Shown one piece after another: positions 1 through 44,355 of a stretch of 44,355 nt of DNA. A program made the position numbers and the translations under genes. Each line of letters starts with the position of its first letter. Positions within the stretch are counted from its first letter, which is position 1. The notes under the pieces are model-generated. The model was not told the DNA's origin. It searched no databases and saw nothing but the letters and a program-made list of their open reading frames with translations. Source of the stretch: a virus; IMG/VR virus record IMGVR_UViG_3300010266_000001, positions 1 to 44,355 of that record. The stretch is one strand, 5' to 3'.

Positions 1-123
1 CAGTATGAACAAAATTCGCAGGCACAATATGATTACTACAAGGCCGGTAATAGTAGAATAGCCAATAATCATTCCGCCGTGTCCACGGCGGTGTGGTGGT
101 GGCTTCGTTCCCCTTGTTGCTAC
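1..123. repeat. Terminal direct repeat identical to 44233..44355 (overlap of a circular or circularly permuted genome; unique length 44232 bp)
   Basis: Both ends of the window read cagtatgaacaaaattcgcagg...cgttccccttgttgctac. The tail-fibre reading frame continues across the junction without a stop. Confidence 0.95.
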
Positions 124-219
124 GACTACGCTGACTTCTGTGATGTCACTGCGGATGGCGGCGGCACTGACGGTAACGCCAATTACTCTGCTGGTGTGCG
201 GCCCGGCTTTGCCGCCTAA
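1..219 (+). CDS. Tail fibre protein, C-terminal end (continuation of 42598..44355 through the circular junction)
   Basis: Frame 1 is open from base 1 to TAA at 217-219: QYEQNSQAQYDYYKAGNSRIANNHSAVSTAVWWWLRSPCCYDYADFCDVTADGGGTDGNANYSAGVRPGFAA*. This is the same frame as the ORF that runs off the right end. Confidence 0.85.
   Translation, partial: QYEQNSQAQYDYYKAGNSRIANNHSAVSTAVWWWLRSPCCYDYADFCDVTADGGGTDGNANYSAGVRPGFAA
115..189 (+). other. Candidate DGR variable region (VR) core in the tail-fibre C-terminus
   Basis: 25 consecutive codons (tgt tgc tac gac tac gct gac ttc tgt gat gtc act gcg gat ggc ggc ggc act gac ggt aac gcc aat tac tct), 24 of which end in C/T. They are flanked by the conserved scaffold WWWLRSP and AGVRPGF. 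A DGR-type RT gene lies 220 nt downstream of the stop. Confidence 0.6.
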
Positions 220-247
220 TCCCCCGCAGGATGATCCCGCCCCCATC

Positions 248-267
248 CCGCCGCCGAAAGGCGGCGG
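248..267. promoter_or_regulatory. Perfect 8-bp GC stem with GAAA tetraloop, 29 nt after the tail-fibre stop (candidate DGR target-recognition hairpin/cruciform)
   Basis: ccgccgcc-gaaa-ggcggcgg. All 8 pairs are Watson-Crick and there is no U-tail, so it is not a classical terminator. Confidence 0.55.
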
Positions 268-300
268 TTCCGGGAGGGAACCCCAAATAAAAATAATAAT

Positions 301-328
301 GGCGGCGTAAGCCGCCCGACGATTTTTT
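301..328 (+). terminator. Putative rho-independent terminator after the tail-fibre gene
   Basis: ggcggc-gtaa-gccgcc hairpin followed, after cgacga, by tttttt. Confidence 0.5.
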
Positions 329-438
329 GAAAATGGGGGTTTTCCGGTAAAGTGCTATCATTTGACTGCTTTTTGAGTGCATACACCGGACAAAATCAGC
401 CATACAATATCTATAAGCCTGTTTGAAGGGGGTATTGT

Positions 439-1431
439 ATGGCAACAAACAAGCGTGTTTTCACCTTGCGCCTATCTGATACGGTGTTGGAACAGACTTG
501 GAAGCCCAAATCCTGTTCCCATTTCACCCTTCGGGAACGGGGAAAAATCCGCCCGATAGATGCCCCGCACATTACGGATCGACAAATCCACAAAACCCTG
601 TGTAATGAAGTCCTGATCCCGTTGTATTCACCTTCCATGATCTATGACAACGGGGCAAGCCAAAAGGGAAAGGGCCTTCATTGGCAGTTCAAACGGATCA
701 AACAACAGCTTGGATGGCATTACCGGCGTTATGGCCGGGAAGGTGCTGTGTTGCTGTTGGATTTGAAGGGGTTCTTTCCAAATGCTTCCCATGCCCTGTT
801 ATACCAGCGGCACCGGGAATTGATTTTGAATCCTGAACTTCAAAACTTGGCTGATACTGTGATTCAATATTCCCCATGCCCGACACCGGGCCGGGGGATG
901 CCTTTGGGCGTTGAGCCTTCCCAACAGGAAATGGTGGCGTTACCAAGCAAAATTGACCAATGGATCAAGTGTCAGGCCCGTGTTCATTGCGCCGGTCATT
1001 ACATGGATGATTACTATGCTTTCTTTCCCACGGTGGATGAAGCAAAGCTGATGGGCCATGAAATTGTAAGGCGTTTTGAAGCCGCTGGAATCCGAGTGAA
1101 CAAGCGCAAGTGTAAGGTGATCCCGCTTACAAAGCCGTTCCGGTTCTGCAAAGCCCGGTTCACACTTACCGAAACCGGCAAGATCAAGGTGAATGGAAGC
1201 CGGGATGGAGTGAAACGGGCAAGGCGAAAACTGAAGCTGTTTCACAGGGAGTTCAAAGAGGGAAAACGATCCTTCTTTGACATAGAACAATACATGGAGT
1301 GCCAAAGCGCCTATTACCGGAACTTCAACGATCATGGCCGGTTGTTGCGGTTGCGGCGGCTTTACCATGCAATCTTTTTCGGAGGTGGACAATGTTTAGA
1401 ATCATCAAAGCCGGGGCCGGTATCGGCCTGA
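439..1431 (+). CDS. Reverse transcriptase, diversity-generating retroelement (DGR) class
   Basis: 330 aa. RBS aaggggg lies 7 nt upstream of the ATG. RT motifs occur in order: GKIRPIDAPHITDRQIHKTLCNEVL, KGKGLH, LLLDLKGFFPN, GMPLGVEPSQ (the LGxxxSQ form typical of DGR RTs) and HYMDDYY. Confidence 0.9.
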   Translation: MATNKRVFTLRLSDTVLEQTWKPKSCSHFTLRERGKIRPIDAPHITDRQIHKTLCNEVLIPLYSPSMIYDNGASQKGKGLHWQFKRIKQQLGWHYRRYGREGAVLLLDLKGFFPNASHALLYQRHRELILNPELQNLADTVIQYSPCPTPGRGMPLGVEPSQQEMVALPSKIDQWIKCQARVHCAGHYMDDYYAFFPTVDEAKLMGHEIVRRFEAAGIRVNKRKCKVIPLTKPFRFCKARFTLTETGKIKVNGSRDGVKRARRKLKLFHREFKEGKRSFFDIEQYMECQSAYYRNFNDHGRLLRLRRLYHAIFFGGGQCLESSKPGPVSA

Positions 1432-2000
1432 CCGAGAACCTGAACTACATCAAAAAAGCCGAAAATGGTTGTTACATCCTTTGCCCGGAGCATGACGCTT
1501 CGGGCATTGTTTTTGAGGGTGTGGCTTACCATTTGTTGGGCCGTGCCGCTATGGACGAACTGGAAACGGTGAGTTTGGAGGAAACGGACGCAGGAACCGA
1601 GATCACCAAAGCCACAGAAGCCGGTGGAATCGTCTTTGTCACCTTGGCGGAAGCCGGGAGCATTGACCCCACCACGGCGGCTGAACACGCTGATCTGTTC
1701 GCTGAATGGGCTTTCCCTGTGGCCTACACGGTAGGGCAGATTCGCCGCTACCAAGGCACCCTTTACAAGTGTGTTCAGGCCCACACTTCCCAAGCGGATT
1801 GGACACCCACAGCCGCTTCCAGTTTGTGGAGTAAGACAAATGATCCCGCTGAAGAATGGCCGGAATGGAGCCAACCGGTAGGAGCGCATGACGCTTATTC
1901 CAAGGGGGCAAAAGTGAGCCATAACAGTAAACATTGGGTTTCCACAGCGGACGCCAATGTGTGGGAACCCGGTGTATATGGTTGGGAGGAATCGGCTTAA
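1392..2000 (+). CDS. Fibre-associated protein with two CBM5/12-like carbohydrate-binding repeats
   Basis: RBS ggaggtgg precedes the ATG at 1392. The C-terminal half contains YQGTLYKCVQAHTSQADWTPTAASSLWS and YSKGAKVSHNSKHWVSTADANVWEPGVYGW, which fit the aromatic pattern of CBM5/12. It overlaps the RT 3' end by 40 nt. Confidence 0.65.
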   Translation: MFRIIKAGAGIGLTENLNYIKKAENGCYILCPEHDASGIVFEGVAYHLLGRAAMDELETVSLEETDAGTEITKATEAGGIVFVTLAEAGSIDPTTAAEHADLFAEWAFPVAYTVGQIRRYQGTLYKCVQAHTSQADWTPTAASSLWSKTNDPAEEWPEWSQPVGAHDAYSKGAKVSHNSKHWVSTADANVWEPGVYGWEESA

Positions 2001-4445: not shown

Positions 4446-5459
4446 CTATGGAATCAGTTCCACGGTGGCCTTCAGTTCGTCCAAAGTCTTGTGATTATAG
4501 ACCCGGTTTCCCGTGTCCTTGGACACATGACCCATGAGCAAATCAATACATTTCCGGTTGGCCCCGGCGCTATCCAATTTGGTTTCAAAGGTGTGGCGGC
4601 ATTCGTGCGGGGTATGATTCAGCTTCAGGGCCTTCATAATATCCGCCCAAAATATCCGGTATTGGGTTTGATTGCAAACCTTCCCATTGTAGCTGATCAG
4701 CCGGGGGCCACCTTCGGCAAGCCGCCGTTCAATCAAGGGCCTGATCTTTGGATGGATGGGAACAATGCGGTTCTTACCGGCTTTCGTTTTGGTGCCGCCC
4801 TTCATCGTGCCTTCCTTCAAGTCTATATCTTCAGGTTTCAGGTTCAAAAATTCAGAGATACGCCACCCGGAATATAGCAAGATCAAAACAGTATCAACCC
4901 AAGGATCAGACTGATGTTCCCACACCGTTTTGATTTCATCGTTGGTGAACGGAAGGCGGCTGGTGGGCGGTATTGGATCAGAAGTCAGAAGTTCAGAGAA
5001 GCACCGGTTTATTATATCCATTTCAAGGGCGAACCGGTCAAGGTGGCCCCACAGGTTCTTGATAGCCGCTTGGGTGCTATACCCTTTCCCACAACCATCA
5101 ATAGTTTCTTGCATTTGGTAGGATCGCAGTTGTTTATAAGGCTTGTTCACATACGCTGAACAATGCTTGAACGCTGAACAGAGGGAAGAACGGTTGGATT
5201 CCCCCAGCTTTGGGGCCTTCTTTTCTTTCCAGAGGTCAAAAAGCTGTTGAAGGGTGATCTTGGCCCGGTCAACATCCCAAGGATCACGGTTGTATTCAGC
5301 AAGCATGATGTTCCCGGCTTCACGGGTTTCAGCATAGCCGATAATGTCATAGATGGGATGGCCTTTGTCATTCCAACCTATGGTTTTCTTCACAATGTAT
5401 GGGCGGCGGCGTTGGCCTGATAGCTTTGCAACCGTTCCATACCCGTTTGGATTTCGCAT
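4446..5459 (-). CDS. int: Tyrosine recombinase / phage integrase
   Basis: RBS aggtga lies 5 nt upstream of the ATG at 5459. The C-terminal catalytic region contains SGWRISEFLNL, HECRHTFET, LMGH and RVYNH (R...HxxR...H...Y pattern). Confidence 0.9.
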   Translation of the reverse strand: MRNPNGYGTVAKLSGQRRRPYIVKKTIGWNDKGHPIYDIIGYAETREAGNIMLAEYNRDPWDVDRAKITLQQLFDLWKEKKAPKLGESNRSSLCSAFKHCSAYVNKPYKQLRSYQMQETIDGCGKGYSTQAAIKNLWGHLDRFALEMDIINRCFSELLTSDPIPPTSRLPFTNDEIKTVWEHQSDPWVDTVLILLYSGWRISEFLNLKPEDIDLKEGTMKGGTKTKAGKNRIVPIHPKIRPLIERRLAEGGPRLISYNGKVCNQTQYRIFWADIMKALKLNHTPHECRHTFETKLDSAGANRKCIDLLMGHVSKDTGNRVYNHKTLDELKATVELIP

Positions 5460-5608: not shown

Positions 5609-5827
5609 ATTTGTTCCATATCCGTTCCGCTTAAAATCCTTGCGGGATGTGGCTTTGAGAGAATGGAACACTTGGAACAGATATTATATTACTTCAAAGA
5701 GTAGATAAAAAATATATAAAAGAAAAGGAGTATATAGAGAACCGGCGCTTTATCTGTTCCACCTGTTCCAAAGCCTTGATTTTCCTGTGTTTTCAGGGAT
5801 TGGACGGCGGAACGGATGTGGACAGAT
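5609..5827. repeat. Iteron module A: GGAACAGAT-type 9-mers in convergent pairs around a 69-bp AT-rich core
   Basis: Direct copies at 5665-5671 and 5674-5682. Inverted copies at 5752-5760 and 5761-5769. Degenerate copies at 5612-5617, 5623-5628, 5809-5817 and 5820-5827. Collinear with module B at 22955-23229. Confidence 0.75.
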
Positions 5828-7577: not shown

Positions 7578-7736
7578 ATGGAAGTTTGGAAAGAAAACAA
7601 ACAGACGGGCCTTTCTTGTGGGATCAATGACTTTGGTGAATTGTTCCTTGGCAATAAAGGAAGCGGATACAATTTACCCGACACCCCCGAAAATCGTGAA
7701 TATATTTTGAATGATTTTGACTATTGGAATCAATAA
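7578..7736 (+). CDS. Small hypothetical protein (52 aa; below the ORF-track cutoff)
   Basis: RBS ggaaggag lies upstream. ATG at 7578, TAA at 7734-7736: MEVWKENKQTGLSCGINDFGELFLGNKGSGYNLPDTPENREYILNDFDYWNQ. Confidence 0.45.
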   Translation: MEVWKENKQTGLSCGINDFGELFLGNKGSGYNLPDTPENREYILNDFDYWNQ

Positions 7737-7934
7737 GCCGAAACGGGCCTGATGGCCCGTCTACCGGAACCGCCCCACCGGTGCTGATGATGGCAGGGCA
7801 ACAGCGACAACATGAGCGCCCCCGGTTTATGGGTTCGGGTATTGGGTATCAATCCCCATGTAAAAGGTATGACCGCCCGGAAATTGCTTGTTGGGGCTTT
7901 GGCTGTTCTATTTTTGAAGAAAGGATGTGAGCGA

Positions 7935-12696: not shown

Positions 12697-13113
12697 ATGG
12701 CCGGTGAAAAAAACTTTGAAAATCGCCTGAAGGAATGGCTGGAAGCTGAAGGGATATATCCCTTGGGTGAACCTGTTGACCACATGAGCGCCCCGCCCTG
12801 TGGCTTCTATGAAAAGCGTTGGGGTGGAAGCCGGTATGTGAAAAGCGGCCTTCCCGATATGCGGATCACCGTGAAGGGCATTGCCCTTGAAGTGGAGCTG
12901 AAGGCCACCGATGGAACCCCATCTGTGCTTCAGAAGCGTAACTTGGCCCAAATCAACGGTTCACAGGGGTTCGGGTTCATCCTTTACCCGGAAGGCTTTG
13001 AAGCCTTCAAGACTATTGTGAAAGGGGTGAAACAATGCGAGTTTCCCACAGCCGGGTTGAAGTCTTTGATAGATGCCCATACAAATACCGCTTGCGATAT
13101 GTGGAAGGGATAG
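12697..13113 (+). CDS. VRR-NUC / PD-(D/E)XK-type nuclease
   Basis: SGLPDMRITVKGIALEVELKATDGTPSVLQKRNLAQING fits the PD...ExK plus Q pattern of VRR-NUC domains. Confidence 0.6.
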   Translation: MAGEKNFENRLKEWLEAEGIYPLGEPVDHMSAPPCGFYEKRWGGSRYVKSGLPDMRITVKGIALEVELKATDGTPSVLQKRNLAQINGSQGFGFILYPEGFEAFKTIVKGVKQCEFPTAGLKSLIDAHTNTACDMWKG

Positions 13114-14990
13114 ATACGATCCCAAACACGGACGCAGACAACGCCCTGATCCTTGGCACCGCCCTTCACACCGGCATTGAAGAAGGGGTTGAACAAGCCC
13201 TTGACTTCTACAAGAACAGCTTCCCGGTTCTGACGGATGATCACATTCATGAAATGATGAAGCTGGAAGCAATGATCTCCAAGGCAAAGGCCATGTTGCC
13301 GCCCGGTGGTTCCTTTGAATTGCCCATTGGGAACGGCGATTTCATCGGCTTTATGGATTACCTGTGGCCCTGTGGTTGGGATTCCAGAACCAATGAAACC
13401 TTGTTTGATCTGTACGATTTCAAGTATTCCAACAACGCCAAGAACTACGCCGTTTCCGGTCAGCTTCACGAATACAAGTATTGGTATGAACTGACCCATC
13501 CCGGCCACCGGATCAGGAATATGTATTTCCTGATTGTTCCCAAGCCCAAGATCAGGCAGAAAAGCACCGAAACCCTTTCCCAATTCCGTGACCGCTTGCA
13601 AGCGGCCTTGAAAGATGCTGAACCAACGCTGATGCCGGTTCAGTACAACCCCATGAAGATTGTGGACTTCCTGACCGATGTGAAGCACATGGTTGAAGCC
13701 ACAGACTTTCCCAAGAACCCAAACCATTTTTGTGGATGGTGTGAGTATGAAGAATATTGTCAGAAAGGATGGGATTATATGTTACTTCCCAAGAATGAAC
13801 GCCGTGATCTGAACGCCACCAAGAAGAAGGTTGTGTGGCTTTACGGCGCACCCTTCAGCGGCAAAACCTTCTTTGCCAATCAGTTCCCCGATCCCCTGAT
13901 GTTGAACACGGATGGCAACATCAAGTTTGTGGATGCCCCCTATATCGCCATTCGTGACACCGTTACGGTGGAAGGCCGTATCACCAAGCGCAAGTTGGCC
14001 TATGAAGTGTTCATGGATGCCGTGGCCGAACTGGAAAAGAAACAGAACGATTTCCGAACCATCGTGGTTGACCTTCTGGAAGATGTTTATGAATCGTGCC
14101 GGGTTTACATCTGTGATCGTCAGGGCTGGAAGCATGAATCTGATGATTCCTTCCGTGCGTGGGATATGGTCAGAAGTGAGTTCCTGAACACCCTGAAGCG
14201 GCTTGTGAATCTGGACTATGAAAACATCATCCTGATCAGCCATGAGGACAGAAGCCGTGACCTGACCCGCAAGGGCGGCGATAAGATCAGTTCTATCAAG
14301 CCGAACCTTCAGGATAAGGTGGCAAATAAGGTGGCCGGTATGGTTGATCTGGTGGCCCGTATCGTGGCGGACGATGATGAACGGGTGCTGTCTTTCAAGA
14401 CTTCTGAAGTGATCTTCGGCGGTGGCCGTTTGACTGTCCGTGATAAGGAAATCCCGCTGACCTATGACGCTTTCTGTGAAGTCTACGAGGAAGCCAACCA
14501 GAAGGCCGCAGGAGCCGTGAAGCGTGGCGGCAATACCCCGGCTACCCCCGCACCTGAAACCACCGACACGCCCACCACAGCGCCCAGCAGAAGGGGCAGA
14601 AAGGTCAAGACTGAAACCCCGCCCCCGGCTGATAACTATGATCCGGTTGAAGATGCGGCAAAGGCGGCTTGTGGTGATCCTGATGGAACTTGGACACCGG
14701 GCGGCGGTGAAAAGGATGATTCTGTTCCTGTTGATGAACCGGCCACCGGTGACACCCCGCCTTGGAACGATCTTCCCAAATGCCCGGACGGTGAACGCAT
14801 TTTCAGACAGCACGATCAGAACCCGGAAATCCCCCTTTGTCCGTCCATTGACGCTGGCCACCGTTGCCACAAGGAAGGCGGCCCCGATGGTTGCCCCCTG
14901 TGGGATCGCCCCAAGGCACAGGCAGAGGAACCCGCACCCAAGACGGATGCTAACCCGCCCCGCCGTACCCGGAAGAAGCGTGAAGAATAA
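13035..14990 (+). CDS. Fusion protein: Cas4-like PD-(D/E)XK nuclease (4-Cys cluster) + Sak4/AAA_24-like ATPase + Pro/Thr/Asp-rich, Cys-containing tail
   Basis: RBS aaaggggtga. N-terminal FDRCPYKY, DLYDFKYS and CGWCEYEEYC (C...CX2CX5C). Walker A is VWLYGAPFSGKTFFA and Walker B is IVVDLLED. The C-terminal ~170 aa are low complexity and include CPDG...CPSIDAGHRCH...GCP. Confidence 0.8.
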   Translation: MRVSHSRVEVFDRCPYKYRLRYVEGIDTIPNTDADNALILGTALHTGIEEGVEQALDFYKNSFPVLTDDHIHEMMKLEAMISKAKAMLPPGGSFELPIGNGDFIGFMDYLWPCGWDSRTNETLFDLYDFKYSNNAKNYAVSGQLHEYKYWYELTHPGHRIRNMYFLIVPKPKIRQKSTETLSQFRDRLQAALKDAEPTLMPVQYNPMKIVDFLTDVKHMVEATDFPKNPNHFCGWCEYEEYCQKGWDYMLLPKNERRDLNATKKKVVWLYGAPFSGKTFFANQFPDPLMLNTDGNIKFVDAPYIAIRDTVTVEGRITKRKLAYEVFMDAVAELEKKQNDFRTIVVDLLEDVYESCRVYICDRQGWKHESDDSFRAWDMVRSEFLNTLKRLVNLDYENIILISHEDRSRDLTRKGGDKISSIKPNLQDKVANKVAGMVDLVARIVADDDERVLSFKTSEVIFGGGRLTVRDKEIPLTYDAFCEVYEEANQKAAGAVKRGGNTPATPAPETTDTPTTAPSRRGRKVKTETPPPADNYDPVEDAAKAACGDPDGTWTPGGGEKDDSVPVDEPATGDTPPWNDLPKCPDGERIFRQHDQNPEIPLCPSIDAGHRCHKEGGPDGCPLWDRPKAQAEEPAPKTDANPPRRTRKKREE

Positions 14991-22954: not shown

Positions 22955-23229
22955 GGAACAGCGTGTGGAACAGATATGGAACAGATGTTTTTAATATATC
23001 TGTTCCGTTCGGAAACCCTTGCAAATACTGACTTTTTCGCTTGTTTTGAACTTGTGGAACAGATGGAACAGATGTCAATATACTTTTCTTATATAAATAA
23101 AAAAATATATAAGATATGTGTATATAAGCAAATGTCCATTTTATCTGTTCCATCTGTTCCAAAGGCTTGAAAACCCTTGATTTTCAAGGGATTGTCTACG
23201 GAACAGATGTACCCTAAAACGGAACAGAT
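22955..23229. repeat. Iteron module B: ten GGAACAGAT-type 9-mers (seven direct, three inverted), with the central convergent pairs (23056-23073 and 23143-23160) flanking a 69-bp AT-rich core
   Basis: Direct copies at 22955, 22967, 22978, 23056, 23065, 23200 and 23221. Inverted ATCTGTTCC at 22998, 23143 and 23152. AT-rich core at 23074-23142. Hairpin cccttga-ttt-tcaaggg at 23174-23190. Confidence 0.8.
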
Positions 23230-25778: not shown

Positions 25779-25967
25779 GTGTTTGAGCAACAGCATATCT
25801 TGAACAAGATTGAACAATGGGCTGAACGCCTACCCTATAAAACCCTGAAGATTGAAGTGGAACTTCCCAATCAATCATTGGTTTTGGAGAAGTCAAAGAA
25901 CAGGCCGGTGGGCTTTGCCCCCCCCCGATGGAGAAAGGAAAGGGTGATTGAATATGTTTTTGAATGA
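25779..25967 (+). CDS. Small hypothetical protein (GTG start)
   Basis: RBS aaaggcggtga. 62 aa. Overlaps the portal start by 14 nt. Confidence 0.4.
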   Translation: MFEQQHILNKIEQWAERLPYKTLKIEVELPNQSLVLEKSKNRPVGFAPPRWRKERVIEYVFE

Positions 25968-27540: not shown

Positions 27541-27615
27541 GGCCCGTTAGTCAAGTGGTTAAGACACCGCCCTTTCACGGCGGTAACGCCGGTTCAACCC
27601 CGGCACGGGCTACCA
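27541..27615 (+). tRNA. tRNA-Glu (anticodon TTC), CCA encoded
   Basis: Acceptor ggcccgt/acgggct. Anticodon arm ccgcc-ctttcac-ggcgg, which as far as I recall is the same as the E. coli tRNA-Glu anticodon arm (from memory, not checked). T arm gccgg-ttcaacc-ccggc. Ends with a discriminator A and CCA. Confidence 0.9.
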
Positions 27616-27767: not shown

Positions 27768-27853
27768 GCTGAAGTGCATGGAACAGGCAGACAGGGCGGA
27801 TTCAAAATCCGTTGCCGCAAGGCGTGTGGGTTCAAATCTCACCTTCAGCACCA
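27768..27853 (+). tRNA. tRNA-Leu (anticodon CAA), class II with long variable arm, CCA encoded
   Basis: Acceptor gctgaag/cttcagc. Anticodon arm gcgga-ttcaaaa-tccgt. Variable arm tgccgcaaggcgt. T arm gtggg-ttcaaat-ctcac. Confidence 0.8.
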
Positions 27854-42056: not shown

Positions 42057-42608
42057 ATGGAACGCAAACTGATTGATTATCTTCCCTATGTCATTCGTGA
42101 TTATGCGGAGTTTCAGGGGATCATGGGGAGCGAACAGCCGGAAATTGAAAAGGCGTGGAATACCACGGATGATCTTCTTGATAATCAGTTCATTCCCACC
42201 GCTGGAAACATGGGCCTTTCCCGGTGGGAAAAGATTTTGGGGATCACCCCCAAAGGCACGGACAGTCTTGAAGATCGCCGGTTCCGTATTCTGACCCGGA
42301 TCAATGAAGAACTTCCGTACACCTTGCCCCAGCTTCGGAATATCCTTGAAACGCTGTGCGGGAAGGGAAACTATTCCGCTGATGTGGAAGAAGGCACCTA
42401 TCAGCTTCTTGTGAAAATCGGGTTGGCCGCAAAGAACAACTTCAATGATGTTGAATCTTTGCTGAACCGGGTTGTTCCCCAAAACATGGTTGTGACCTTG
42501 CTTCAGCTTTATAACACCCATGCGGAACTTGGGCGGTTCACCCATGCCCAGCTTGCCGCCTATACCCATAATCAGTTGAGAAACGAGGTTTTGAAGAATG
42601 GCGAATAA
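42057..42608 (+). CDS. Tail protein XkdU-like (DUF2313)
   Basis: LIDYLPYVIRDYAEFQGIM...TAGNMGLSRWEKILGITPKGTDSLEDRRFRILTRI. Confidence 0.85.
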   Translation: MERKLIDYLPYVIRDYAEFQGIMGSEQPEIEKAWNTTDDLLDNQFIPTAGNMGLSRWEKILGITPKGTDSLEDRRFRILTRINEELPYTLPQLRNILETLCGKGNYSADVEEGTYQLLVKIGLAAKNNFNDVESLLNRVVPQNMVVTLLQLYNTHAELGRFTHAQLAAYTHNQLRNEVLKNGE

Positions 42609-44355
42609 AACAACCAACTACAAGCTGACTAAACCCCTTGAATCTGAATTTTATGATGTAGGGGTTCAGAATGAAAACATGGATAAGATTGATACCCAAA
42701 TGAAGGCCAATGCGGATGCCGTTGAAGCCCTTCAGAAAGGTCAATCCGGGAAGGCTGATCTGGTGGATGGTAAGGTTCCCGCCGAACAGCTTCCCAACAT
42801 GAACTATGATCCCAAAGGTACGGCCCAAAACAAGGTGAGCGAACACAACCTTGATCAGACCGCCCACCCGTATCTGTTGAACCAGATCGGAACCTGTGTG
42901 GAAGCCGCACAGAACGCACAGGATGCCGCAAATGCGGCCTTGGATGCTGTGTCCGGTATCGTCTATACCATCAATGTTCTTCCTTCGCAGAATGGCACCC
43001 TGACCTATAACGGACAGGCCCAAAGCCCTTCTTGGAACGCTTATAACCCCGATGCGCTGACCTTGGGCGGCGTGACTACCGGCACCAATGCGGGAACCTA
43101 CACGGCCACTTTCACACCCAAGGGGCAGTATAAATGGGCAGACGGTACGCAGACCGCCAAGGAAGTGACTTGGACGATCAACGCCGCCACAATGACGATC
43201 CCCACGCAGAGCAACAGCCTTACTTATACCGGTTCGGCCCAAAGCCCCACTTGGAACAACTATGACAGCGGGAAAATGACGCTTGGAGGAACTACCAGCG
43301 GCACGAACGCCGGTTCCTACAATGCCACCTTCACGCCGAAAACGAACTACAAGTGGGCTGATGGAAGCACCGGGGCCAAGACGGTTGCTTGGAGCATTGC
43401 CAAGGCCGCTGGTAGTTTGTCTTTGAATAAGACTTCCATCAAACTGACCGCCGCAAAAACCACGGACACCATCACCGTGACAAGGGCGGGTGATGGTAAG
43501 ATTACGGCCACTTCCAGCGCCCCCACGGTGGCTTCTGTGAGTGTTTCCGGTTCGGTGGTAACTGTTACCGCCAAGGCCAAAGGAAACGCTACAATCACCG
43601 TCAGAGTGGCCGCTGGCACCAACCACACGGCCCCGGCCAATAAGACCTGTTCCGTTGAAGTGACATTGCCCACCAAGGTTCTGAACGATAACAGTTGGGC
43701 AACCATCCGGGAAGTCAGTTCCGCAGGTTTGGGGGCCAACTATTGGGCCGTTGGTGATGTGAAGTCTATCATTCTGAACGGCGCTGTGGTTGGCTATACC
43801 TTCAGCAACTTGACCGTGAACGCCTTCATTTTGGGCTTCAATCACAATTCCGCCAAGGAAGGTGCGAACAAGATTCATTTCCAGATTGGAAAGATCGGCA
43901 CCACGCCGGTTGCCCTGTGTGACAGTCAGTATAATAATTATGGCAGTTCGGCGGGTTTCAGGATGAACACCAGCAACACCAACAGCGGTGGTTGGAACGG
44001 TTCTTATATGCGGAAAACCGTTTTGGGCAACACCAACACCCCCACAAACCCCTTGGCAAACAGCTTGATGGCGGCGCTTCCGTCTGACCTTCGTGCTGTG
44101 ATGCAACCCGTAACCAAGTACACCGACAACACGGGCAATTCCAGCAACAGTTCCGGTAATGTCACAGCTACCACCGATTACCTGTTCTTGCTGGCTGAAT
44201 TTGAAGTGTTTGGAACCCGTTCTGGTGCAAACCAGTATGAACAAAATTCGCAGGCACAATATGATTACTACAAGGCCGGTAATAGTAGAATAGCCAATAA
44301 TCATTCCGCCGTGTCCACGGCGGTGTGGTGGTGGCTTCGTTCCCCTTGTTGCTAC
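42598..44355 (+). CDS. Tail fibre / receptor-binding protein (runs off the window end and continues at 1..219; total 658 aa when the overlap is counted once)
   Basis: ATG at 42598. N-terminal MANKTTNYKLTKPLESEFYDVGVQNENMDKID (XkdV-like). Two 73-aa MBG-like repeats (43000-43410), a Big_2-like Ig domain, then a C-terminal ...LFLLAEFEVFG...WWWLRSP... domain. Confidence 0.85.
   Translation, partial: MANKTTNYKLTKPLESEFYDVGVQNENMDKIDTQMKANADAVEALQKGQSGKADLVDGKVPAEQLPNMNYDPKGTAQNKVSEHNLDQTAHPYLLNQIGTCVEAAQNAQDAANAALDAVSGIVYTINVLPSQNGTLTYNGQAQSPSWNAYNPDALTLGGVTTGTNAGTYTATFTPKGQYKWADGTQTAKEVTWTINAATMTIPTQSNSLTYTGSAQSPTWNNYDSGKMTLGGTTSGTNAGSYNATFTPKTNYKWADGSTGAKTVAWSIAKAAGSLSLNKTSIKLTAAKTTDTITVTRAGDGKITATSSAPTVASVSVSGSVVTVTAKAKGNATITVRVAAGTNHTAPANKTCSVEVTLPTKVLNDNSWATIREVSSAGLGANYWAVGDVKSIILNGAVVGYTFSNLTVNAFILGFNHNSAKEGANKIHFQIGKIGTTPVALCDSQYNNYGSSAGFRMNTSNTNSGGWNGSYMRKTVLGNTNTPTNPLANSLMAALPSDLRAVMQPVTKYTDNTGNSSNSSGNVTATTDYLFLLAEFEVFGTRSGANQYEQNSQAQYDYYKAGNSRIANNHSAVSTAVWWWLRSPCCY
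44233..44355. repeat. Right copy of the 123-bp terminal repeat
   Basis: Identical to bases 1-123. Confidence 0.95.

Follow-up and report, generated by a model that had tools for sequence, protein, structure and literature searches.

A DGR variable region beside a 5'-truncated reverse transcriptase in a gut phage genome

The window analyzed here, a stretch of 44,355 nucleotides of virus DNA (positions 1 to 44,355 of IMG/VR record IMGVR_UViG_3300010266_000001), opens on the 3' end of a gene in which nearly every codon of a short run ends in a pyrimidine. An earlier note on this DNA read the run as the variable region (VR) of a diversity-generating retroelement (DGR), derived from AAY codons by changes at adenines and framed by scaffold residues, associated this footprint with receptor-binding tips of C-type-lectin fold, and took it to imply that the phage diversifies its host-recognition tip. 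Two questions arise from this locus: whether the run was written from the adenines of a template repeat (TR), and whether the genome as it stands still carries the parts that would rewrite it.

A pyrimidine-ending codon run in a tail-fiber-position gene

The gene that carries the run is interrupted by the ends of the window. Bases 1-123 are identical to bases 44233-44355, a terminal overlap that leaves a circle of 44,232 bp; because the second stretch duplicates the first, the open reading frame (ORF) that begins at 42598 continues at window position 124. The two parts of the gene are as follows.

42598-44355, + strand: DGR target gene, first part (codons 1-586) of the joined ORF, which continues at window position 124
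1-219, + strand: 3' end of the target gene, its last 72 codons and the stop codon at 217-219; the terminal overlap takes up bases 1-123

The full target product is 617 amino acids long, with a Big_2 domain at residues 287-342 (26 bits) and a DUF6273 domain at residues 461-615, the latter scoring 58.9 bits against a Pfam gathering cut-off of 23.5. At E <= 1e-5 there were 5,882 homologues, and all 120 among the matches listed carry PF19789. The gene lies directly 3' of the Baseplate_J and Mu Gp48 genes, which is the position of a tail fiber. For a further ORF of the window, at 13035-14990, a look-up gave no record.

Window positions 115-189 comprise 25 codons, encoding CCYDYADFCDVTADGGGTDGNANYS, which stand between WWWLRSP and AGVRPGF; the residues AA and the stop codon follow. 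The sequence of the run, its translation, and the earlier count of 24 pyrimidine-ending codons out of 25 were all reproduced. In the rest of the target gene 63% of codons end in a pyrimidine, giving a binomial probability of 1.5e-4 for 24 or more such codons in the run, and the other 25-codon windows of the gene hold 21 at most. The proposed framing of the run by scaffold residues was borne out by an alignment of 36 proteins, in which the second W of WWW is nearly invariant and R and S are kept; F and G within the run are conserved, and likewise P and F at the end.

The fold of the C-terminal domain was approached through an AlphaFold2 model of a homologous protein (P0001), 90% identical to the last 261 residues of the target in the window, built from a 36-sequence alignment. 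The model had a pTM of 0.83, yet over residues 208-235, on the approach to the VR, its pLDDT was under 50. A Foldseek search with the model against the PDB gave one significant match, the entry 9qa6 (E 1.9e-4, TMq 0.42), which is an IgA peptidase domain from Thomasclavelia ramosa. Matches to C-type-lectin-like proteins (surfactant protein A, the Legionella Lcl C-terminal domain, and snake-venom lectins) had E values above 1 and covered 33-93 columns. A profile search of PDB sequences with the domain alignment gave nothing significant.

The variable region, the template repeats of relatives, and the target site

A search of IMG/VR with the C-terminus of the target protein identified 177 relatives, of which 80 were retrieved. 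A full cassette, consisting of the VR, an Arc-like gene, a gene for a 152-aa protein, a TR, and a full-length reverse transcriptase (RT), is present in about 44 of the 51 retrieved loci that reach an RT; in the closest intact relatives the RT is 390 aa long. The TRs of relatives are rich in AAY codons and read, for example, WWWLRSPNYNNNNNFRNVNTDGNNNNNNANYSAGVRP. The ancestral TR of the present genome was inferred from these relatives, and is of the type found, in identical form, in three independent loci, designated L005, L086, and L093. Alignment with this TR defined the following features.

87-208, + strand: VR, homologous to the TR of intact relatives (L005 6223-6333 with flanks), encoding AVWWWLRSP...AGVRPG
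115-189, + strand: the 25-codon run, the diversified VR core; the TR has AAY at 15 of its codons, 13 of which are changed here

The 3' end of the VR homology, taken from the TR alignment, falls 9 nt before the target-gene stop codon, and the mismatch counts cover window 87-205 (119 nt). Over this stretch the VR differs from the TR at 20 TR adenines and at 1 position elsewhere. All 20 adenine-site changes lie within 115-173 (14 A>G, 3 A>T, and 3 A>C), the sole mismatch outside TR adenines is a C>T change at 139 (CGT>TGT), and the run's final five codons match the template. The adenine bias of the mismatches gave a Fisher P of ~1e-10 in a 135-nt comparison that includes flanks. As control pairs we used the 134-nt VR and TR of Taranis and of Roos, each compared with its own partner; these showed 15-16 mismatches at adenines and 0-1 elsewhere. 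A TR from another subgroup, that of L003 (MT839857.1, a human-fecal fragment), was also tried as the parent and rejected, as it left 24 non-adenine mismatches; the L005/L086/L093 TR fits.

The pyrimidine endings of the run (24 of 25) are accounted for by this template, because the AAY (Asn) codons of the TR were rewritten to NNY; the origin from AAY codons proposed in the earlier note is thus seen in the TR of relatives. Comparison between relatives, the check that the earlier note had named, found the same positions to be hypervariable. Among the five relatives that share the TR subgroup, 41% of cells at TR-adenine columns differ from the TR, versus 0.5% at other columns, and every relative's VR in the retrieved IMG/VR loci is different.

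These comparisons bear on the simplest rival, that the run is conserved native sequence shaped by codon bias and with no link to a retroelement. Such a reading could draw on the gene's own background of pyrimidine third positions (the 63% given above) and on the lack of a TR in the window. The variation between relatives, however, matches TR adenines almost exclusively, and the allele was found in no other contig of three collections: exact searches of JGI metagenomes and GTDB genomes gave no matches, and the best IMG/VR match was 81% identical at the amino acid level. Among the relatives examined, none that lacks an RT was found to carry these residues. We regard native sequence as a vanishingly improbable explanation. 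On these alignments, and with a DGR-type RT adjoining, the run belongs to an authentic DGR variable region, of which it forms the diversified core, as had been suggested; the mismatch pattern shows that the VR underwent adenine mutagenesis in an ancestor, insofar as this can be read from aligned copies.

Downstream of the run are three further elements.

196-222, + strand: GC-rich 3' end of the VR, IMH-like, GTGCGGCCCGGCTTTGCCGCC TAA, from the alignment of VR and TR copies
248-267, + strand: target-site hairpin/cruciform with an 8-bp GC stem, CCGCCGCC/GGCGGCGG, and a GAAA loop (RNAalifold)
301-330, + strand: second hairpin, GGCGGC-GTAA-GCCGCC, followed by a T-run, read by eye from the sequence

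At the GC-rich end VR copies read GGCTTTGCC and TR copies GGATTTTGC, with two exceptions among the VR copies examined; by analogy with BPP-1, this end would act as the IMH. The hairpin at 248-267 lies 35-39 nt past the end of the VR/TR homology. RNAalifold over 11 diverse relatives gave 7 pairs in this hairpin, 2 of them with compensatory double changes (GC<->CG in 5/11 and CG<->AU in 3/11), and the loops read GAAA, GGAA, or GCAA. In phage DGR targets, a GC stem of 7-10 bp with a 4-nt 5'-GRNA loop lies 4-34 bp from the VR, and in BPP-1 the hairpin structure is needed for efficient retrohoming (Guo et al. 2011, PMC3240598). The hairpin at 248-267 fits the published stem and GRNA-loop features, whereas its distance from the VR, 35-39 nt, compares with 4-34 bp in the published set of phage DGRs (PMC3240598). 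The second hairpin is likely, from its sequence, to be the terminator of the target gene.

A deletion junction and a truncated reverse transcriptase

Beyond the second hairpin, an ORF at 439-1431 encodes a 330-aa protein that matches Pfam RVT_1 at 2e-12. Comparison with intact relatives identified it as a fusion with the following parts.

439-480, + strand: remnant of an Arc-like (ribbon-helix-helix) gene, the start codon and 13 codons, MATNKRVFTLRLSD, forming the 5' end of the fused ORF
480-481, no strand: deletion junction; 1,237 bp of L005 (5565-6801) are absent, with microhomology of 0-2 nt
481-1431, + strand: DGR reverse transcriptase truncated at its 5' end; of the 390 residues of the intact enzyme it has 75-390, with the RVT_1 core, LGVEPSQ, and YMDD retained

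The closest intact relative with both sides of the junction is L005 (IMGVR_UViG_3300045988_003027), whose homology to the window extends over 201-480 on the left and resumes at 481 on the right. The 14 residues of the remnant are the same as those at the start of Taranis gp69 and of the 62-aa gene of L005, and the intact Arc-like gene of relatives gives RHH/Arc domain matches. What the junction has cost is the greater part of the Arc-like gene, RT codons 1-74, and everything in between: the accessory gene for the 152-aa protein, the TR, and the spacer that separates TR and RT. The 14 Arc-like codons are joined in frame to RT codon 75, and the frame is open to the natural RT stop. MT839857.1 is 99.3% identical to the window, from base 481 on only, and its RT is 100% identical in amino acid sequence to the RT remainder from residue 75 on; upstream of the match, the last part of the 152-aa gene is followed by a TR rich in AAY codons, the spacer, and then a complete RT of 390 aa.

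The motifs of the DGR clade of RTs, [ILV]GxxxSQ and YxDD, are present, though the ORF is without residues 1-74. The best PDB match of the RT was the BPP-1 bRT (8ub7, E 1.9e-6), with LGVEPSQ aligned to IGSLTSQ and the YMDD motifs aligned. From this alignment, the lost segment would correspond roughly to bRT residues 1-50, an N-terminal extension before the fingers. Counting against a reading in which the VR can no longer change, the genome keeps its target-site elements undamaged, and an RT core that is likewise whole follows a start codon in frame; trans-complementation or residual activity is conceivable.

The missing parts were sought elsewhere in the window. An ungapped slide of five VR sub-windows along both strands of the 44-kb window gave no TR, the best score being 66/160 (against 60-219); word-7 blastn(-short) searches of the window for a TR returned noise only; and a search of the window for long repeats (seed 9) found none except the terminal overlap. 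An accessory gene of the Avd/HRDC type was not found in the window by tblastn. The 152-aa ORF of relatives has no Pfam match and no Avd homology, and matches only phrog_30516, of unknown function. We also considered whether window 1-219 might itself be a TR, with the terminal overlap as a join between VR and TR. This was rejected: the ORF reads through, the sequence is adenine-poor at the templated sites, and a VR-type end and hairpin, rather than a TR-type end, lie 3' of the run.

A junction of this kind could arise in assembly, and one rival holds that it is an assembly artefact or chimera and that the real phage has an intact, active DGR. DGR loci are notoriously misassembled; four retrieved loci (L022, L052, L066, and L074, described below) appear collapsed, many contigs end in the VR, and the window's own ends fall there. 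The present junction, however, joins Arc-like codon 14 to RT codon 75 rather than VR to TR repeats, and no stop interrupts the fused frame before the natural end of the RT. Two other contigs on record contain the 330-aa fused ORF in exactly this form. In the Logan assembly of SRR5190361 (44,254 bp; L084) the identical junction was confirmed; the second contig with the fused ORF is presumably the ENA MEGAHIT contig k141_121349 of ERZ27241758 (44,374 bp), which was found via another protein of the same genotype. The Logan pieces, compared over ~24 kb of the window, differ from it by one substitution, and the ENA piece covers 15 kb with 0 substitutions and one C9/C10 length difference. Because the microhomology is only 0-2 nt and the assemblers use different k, a graph misjoin at 480/481 is very unlikely; a de Bruijn graph cannot produce such a junction without spanning reads. 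We consider an artefact at this locus highly improbable.

Exact searches for the 480/481 junction in IMG/VR, JGI metagenomes, and GTDB genomes gave no matches. The deletion looks recent, because nothing in the RT remainder has been disabled by mutation and the genotype's three assemblies scarcely differ. The exact protein encoded by a neighboring gene, which carries a CBM_5_12 domain, occurs in 2,920 index blocks, and an intact cassette was present in 10/10 of the ENA prophage places examined, within long bacterial contigs. Thus a gut prophage that is very common has given rise, recently, to a deleted form that is rare. It may be that one sample is behind all three assemblies, in which case the deletion may be a rare local variant.

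With no TR, no accessory gene, and an RT that lacks its first 74 residues through the 1,237-bp deletion, the statement that the phage diversifies its host-recognition tip does not carry over to the genome in hand. Diversification of the tip is probably true of the lineage and not of the present genome, unless a helper acts in trans. We have good confidence in a reading in which the run is the mutagenized VR core of a DGR of the Taranis/Roos/Pioen type, the template and part of the RT were later deleted, and the VR is now a frozen allele. In an ancestor, reverse transcription of an RNA copied from a downstream TR (of the WWWLRSPNYNNNNNFRNVNTDGNNNNNNANYSAGVRP type) misincorporated bases at random opposite adenines. 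The 3' end of the DUF6273 gene, in tail-fiber position, was replaced by the resulting cDNA, for which the GC-rich VR end and the GAAA hairpin would have been the guides, and up to 15 AAY (Asn) codons were rewritten to NNY. A later illegitimate deletion of 1,237 bp took out the TR, the 152-aa gene, the spacer, and 74 RT codons, leaving the in-frame Arc-like::RT fusion. The remaining VR would be a frozen allele, changing by ordinary mutation only. Since a target site and a crippled RT remain without a template, no further self-diversification would be expected, and the locus is best described as a decayed member of the DGR family with a fossil VR, its TR and accessory gene missing and its RT truncated.

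The one substitution between the assemblies lies within the VR.

124, + strand: VR base that varies between assemblies, with G in the window (GAC, Asp) and, in the Logan assembly of SRR5190361, A as in the template (AAC, Asn)

Position 124 is both a TR-adenine site and the first base past the 123-nt terminal overlap, and the window ends probably mark an assembly-graph branch at this SNP. The chance that a random substitution in 24 kb falls on one of the 34 TR-adenine sites is ~1.4e-3. The change lacks the signature of fresh retrohoming, since the two alleles share the 19 other adenine-site substitutions to either side; the simplest reading would be a transition of the ordinary kind, possibly under selection if the residue contacts a receptor. 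With position 124 differing, the VR falls short of strict invariance within the genotype.

The same site enters into a further rival, in which the VR is still diversified in trans by a co-resident or co-infecting intact relative with a near-identical TR, which would provide TR RNA, RT, and accessory protein. That the only substitution between assemblies should fall on a TR adenine is in keeping with this proposal, but a difference at one adenine site with 19 others shared fits a point mutation or very limited conversion. The GC-rich end and the hairpin are intact and conserved, and intact relatives with a fitting TR are extremely common in gut metagenomes, to judge from the 2,920 index blocks with the CBM_5_12 neighbor; there is, however, no known helper for the source sample, and all assemblies of the genotype run cleanly through the VR, where many relatives' contigs break. 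We consider continued diversification in trans distinctly unlikely, and retain the reading in which the VR is frozen.

Known systems and decay within the phage group

The nearest named systems are the DGRs of the Faecalibacterium phages Taranis, Roos, and Pioen. FP_Taranis, Roos, and Pioen are ~68% identical to window 19-1500, a region that spans 2.7 kb in those phages versus 1.5 kb here. In Taranis the order is a DUF6273 "DGR target," the Arc-like gene, the 152-aa gene, ~380 nt of non-coding sequence, and a 393-aa RT. The TR/VR pairs of Taranis are known, no Avd homologue was found there, and the function of the target was left unassigned (Cornuault et al. 2018, PMC5883640). In Roos and Pioen the VR is at the C-terminus of the DUF6273 protein, and activity was seen at the level of reads (Microbiol Spectr 2024, PMC11792537). 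The present locus shares with these DGRs the gene order, the placement of the VR at the extreme 3' end of a DUF6273 target within the tail/baseplate module, and the same kind of hairpin after the VR. In contrast to them, it has lost the Arc-like gene body and RT residues 1-74, the 152-aa gene, TR, and spacer are absent, and its inferred TR falls in a sequence subgroup (NYNNNNNFRNVNTDGNNNNNNANYS) other than that of Taranis. Outside the DGR module, the present genome is not close to any named phage. The DGR type is already published, and there is no new mechanism here; the phage group is one of very abundant human-gut Faecalibacterium phages.

With the Bordetella BPP-1 DGR (Mtd/avd/TR/brt) the locus has in common the adenine-specific transfer from TR to VR into the C-terminus of a receptor-binding protein, as well as a VR that ends GC-rich and has, downstream of it, a GC stem capped by a GAAA loop, and the BPP-1 bRT is the nearest RT of solved structure. 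The target domain is a DUF6273 domain with no demonstrated relation to the C-type-lectin fold of Mtd, and the accessory protein of the relatives, unlike that of BPP-1, has no detectable homology to Avd. An engineered recipient for retrohoming assays, BPP-1ΔATR (PMC3240598), is mirrored here in that the VR and hairpin are kept while the RT is incomplete and neither accessory gene nor TR is left; the difference is that the deletion here is natural and leaves an RT remnant. The genome is thus a natural equivalent of the laboratory avd-TR-RT deletion recipient and, together with its near-identical intact relatives, offers a possible test of trans-complementation and of whether a phage gains or loses fitness when its DGR is silenced. 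It also illustrates that a VR-like footprint and an adjoining RT gene are insufficient to call a DGR active, since the footprint here is authentic and the template is gone. For annotation, the receptor-binding site at the tail-fiber tip is hypervariable in the group, and the sequence in this phage is best entered as a single fixed allele of it.

Genome surveys report incomplete or decayed DGR cassettes, in which a VR-like target and RT-related sequence occur without the full set of parts. Compared with these, the decay described here can be traced to the base through near-identical intact relatives. Two further loci in the retrieved set carry deletions of their own. In L045, 331 nt are missing, from the TR's 3' end to about RT codon 26, with 2-nt microhomology; in L055, 425 nt are missing, from the spacer to about RT codon 99, with 7-nt microhomology. 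Together with the window these make three independent deletions, each of which removes the 5' end of the RT, and they are suggestive of recurrent loss.

One could go further and propose that loss of the TR and the RT 5' end is a recurrent, selected lock-in of a successful receptor-binding allele, which could be diversified again through the machinery of intact relatives. We regard this proposal as unlikely. If it were true, the three deletions, the Arc-like::RT fusion, and the lone polymorphism at a TR adenine would be traces of a cycle of locking and unlocking.

The four collapsed loci mentioned above are of a different form. L022 and L052 are exact VR-to-TR collapses, and L066 and L074, which are without the Arc-like and 152-aa genes, look like VR-to-TR collapses as well; all four could be products of recombination or assembly artefacts.

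Loss of the RT 5' region and repeat junctions in related cassettes

The 5' region of the reverse transcriptase (RT) gene has been lost separately three times in one phage group: in the window and in two related IMG/VR loci, L045 and L055. The deletions in these two relatives, listed below, arose independently of each other.

L045, ~6320: deletion of 331 nt, running from the template repeat's (TR's) 3' end to RT codon ~26, with 2 nt of microhomology
L055, ~6456: deletion of 425 nt, starting in the TR-RT spacer and reaching RT codon ~99, with 7 nt of microhomology

In four other relatives (L022, L052, L066, and L074), the variable region (VR) runs directly into the TR, which gives a chimeric VR/TR, and the Arc-like gene and the 152-aa gene are absent; about 20 contigs (L062-L083) terminate within the VR. 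Such VR-to-TR jumps and contig ends in the VR are typical assembly outcomes of a VR/TR repeat and of VR heterogeneity.

The variable region, its hairpin, and its target protein

Two relatives carry a flipped loop in the hairpin that follows the VR.

L033, ~5333-5352: post-VR hairpin, loop TTTC instead of GAAA, stem unaltered
L091, ~617-636: post-VR hairpin, loop TTTC instead of GAAA, stem unaltered

Both hairpins have the appearance of an inverted palindrome. For retrohoming in the Bordetella phage BPP-1, the hairpin loop sequence is important (PMC3240598).

The window was compared over ~24 kb with a second assembly of its genotype, Logan SRR5190361, and the sole substitution lies at position 124 (G in the window, A in the Logan assembly), a TR-adenine site within the VR. 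Because this position is the first base past the 123-nt terminal overlap, the ends of the window contig probably mark an assembly-graph branch at this polymorphism. A third assembly, ENA ERZ27241758, differs from the window across 15 kb only in a poly-C tract at ~25918-25927, in a small ORF immediately upstream of the portal gene, which reads C9 in the window and C10 in the ENA assembly; the difference could be a sequencing slip, an assembly slip, or a length-variable tract.

The structural model of P0001, a homologue of the part of the target protein encoded by 43573-44355 and 124-219, gave a single significant structural match, a domain of the IgA peptidase from Thomasclavelia ramosa (9qa6), which aligned with the DUF6273 domain model over 288 columns (E 1.9e-4, 20% identity). 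This modeled resemblance may offer a lead to the binding partner of DUF6273.

Other features of the phage genome

The following features were also located in the window.

1392-2000, +: CBM_5_12 carbohydrate-binding protein ORF (7e-16), overlapping the RT 3' end
5664-5819 and 23055-23210: two copies of a ~160-nt element, 76-79% identical to each other
7736-7802, +: type II hammerhead ribozyme (RF02276), Rfam call, 42.6 bits (gathering score 37), E 1.6e-5
27541-27615, +: tRNA-Glu(TTC) gene
27768-27853, +: tRNA-Leu(CAA) gene

Across public assemblies, 2,920 index blocks contain the exact 202-aa CBM_5_12 protein sequence, which identifies the prophage group as extremely common in gut metagenomes. 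In each copy of the duplicated element, inverted arms flank an AT-rich spacer (TGGAACACTTGGAACAGAT / ATCTGTTCCACCTGTTCCA at 5.7 kb, TGGAACAGATGGAACAGAT / ATCTGTTCCATCTGTTCCA at 23.1 kb); one copy adjoins the integrase/repressor region, the other sits upstream of a DUF1492-like late-region ORF, and the pair resembles a shared operator or promoter. The ribozyme match spans the full length of the RF02276 model. Megablast matches to unrelated Listeria, Staphylococcus, and Enterococcus phages stem from the tRNA-Glu stretch.
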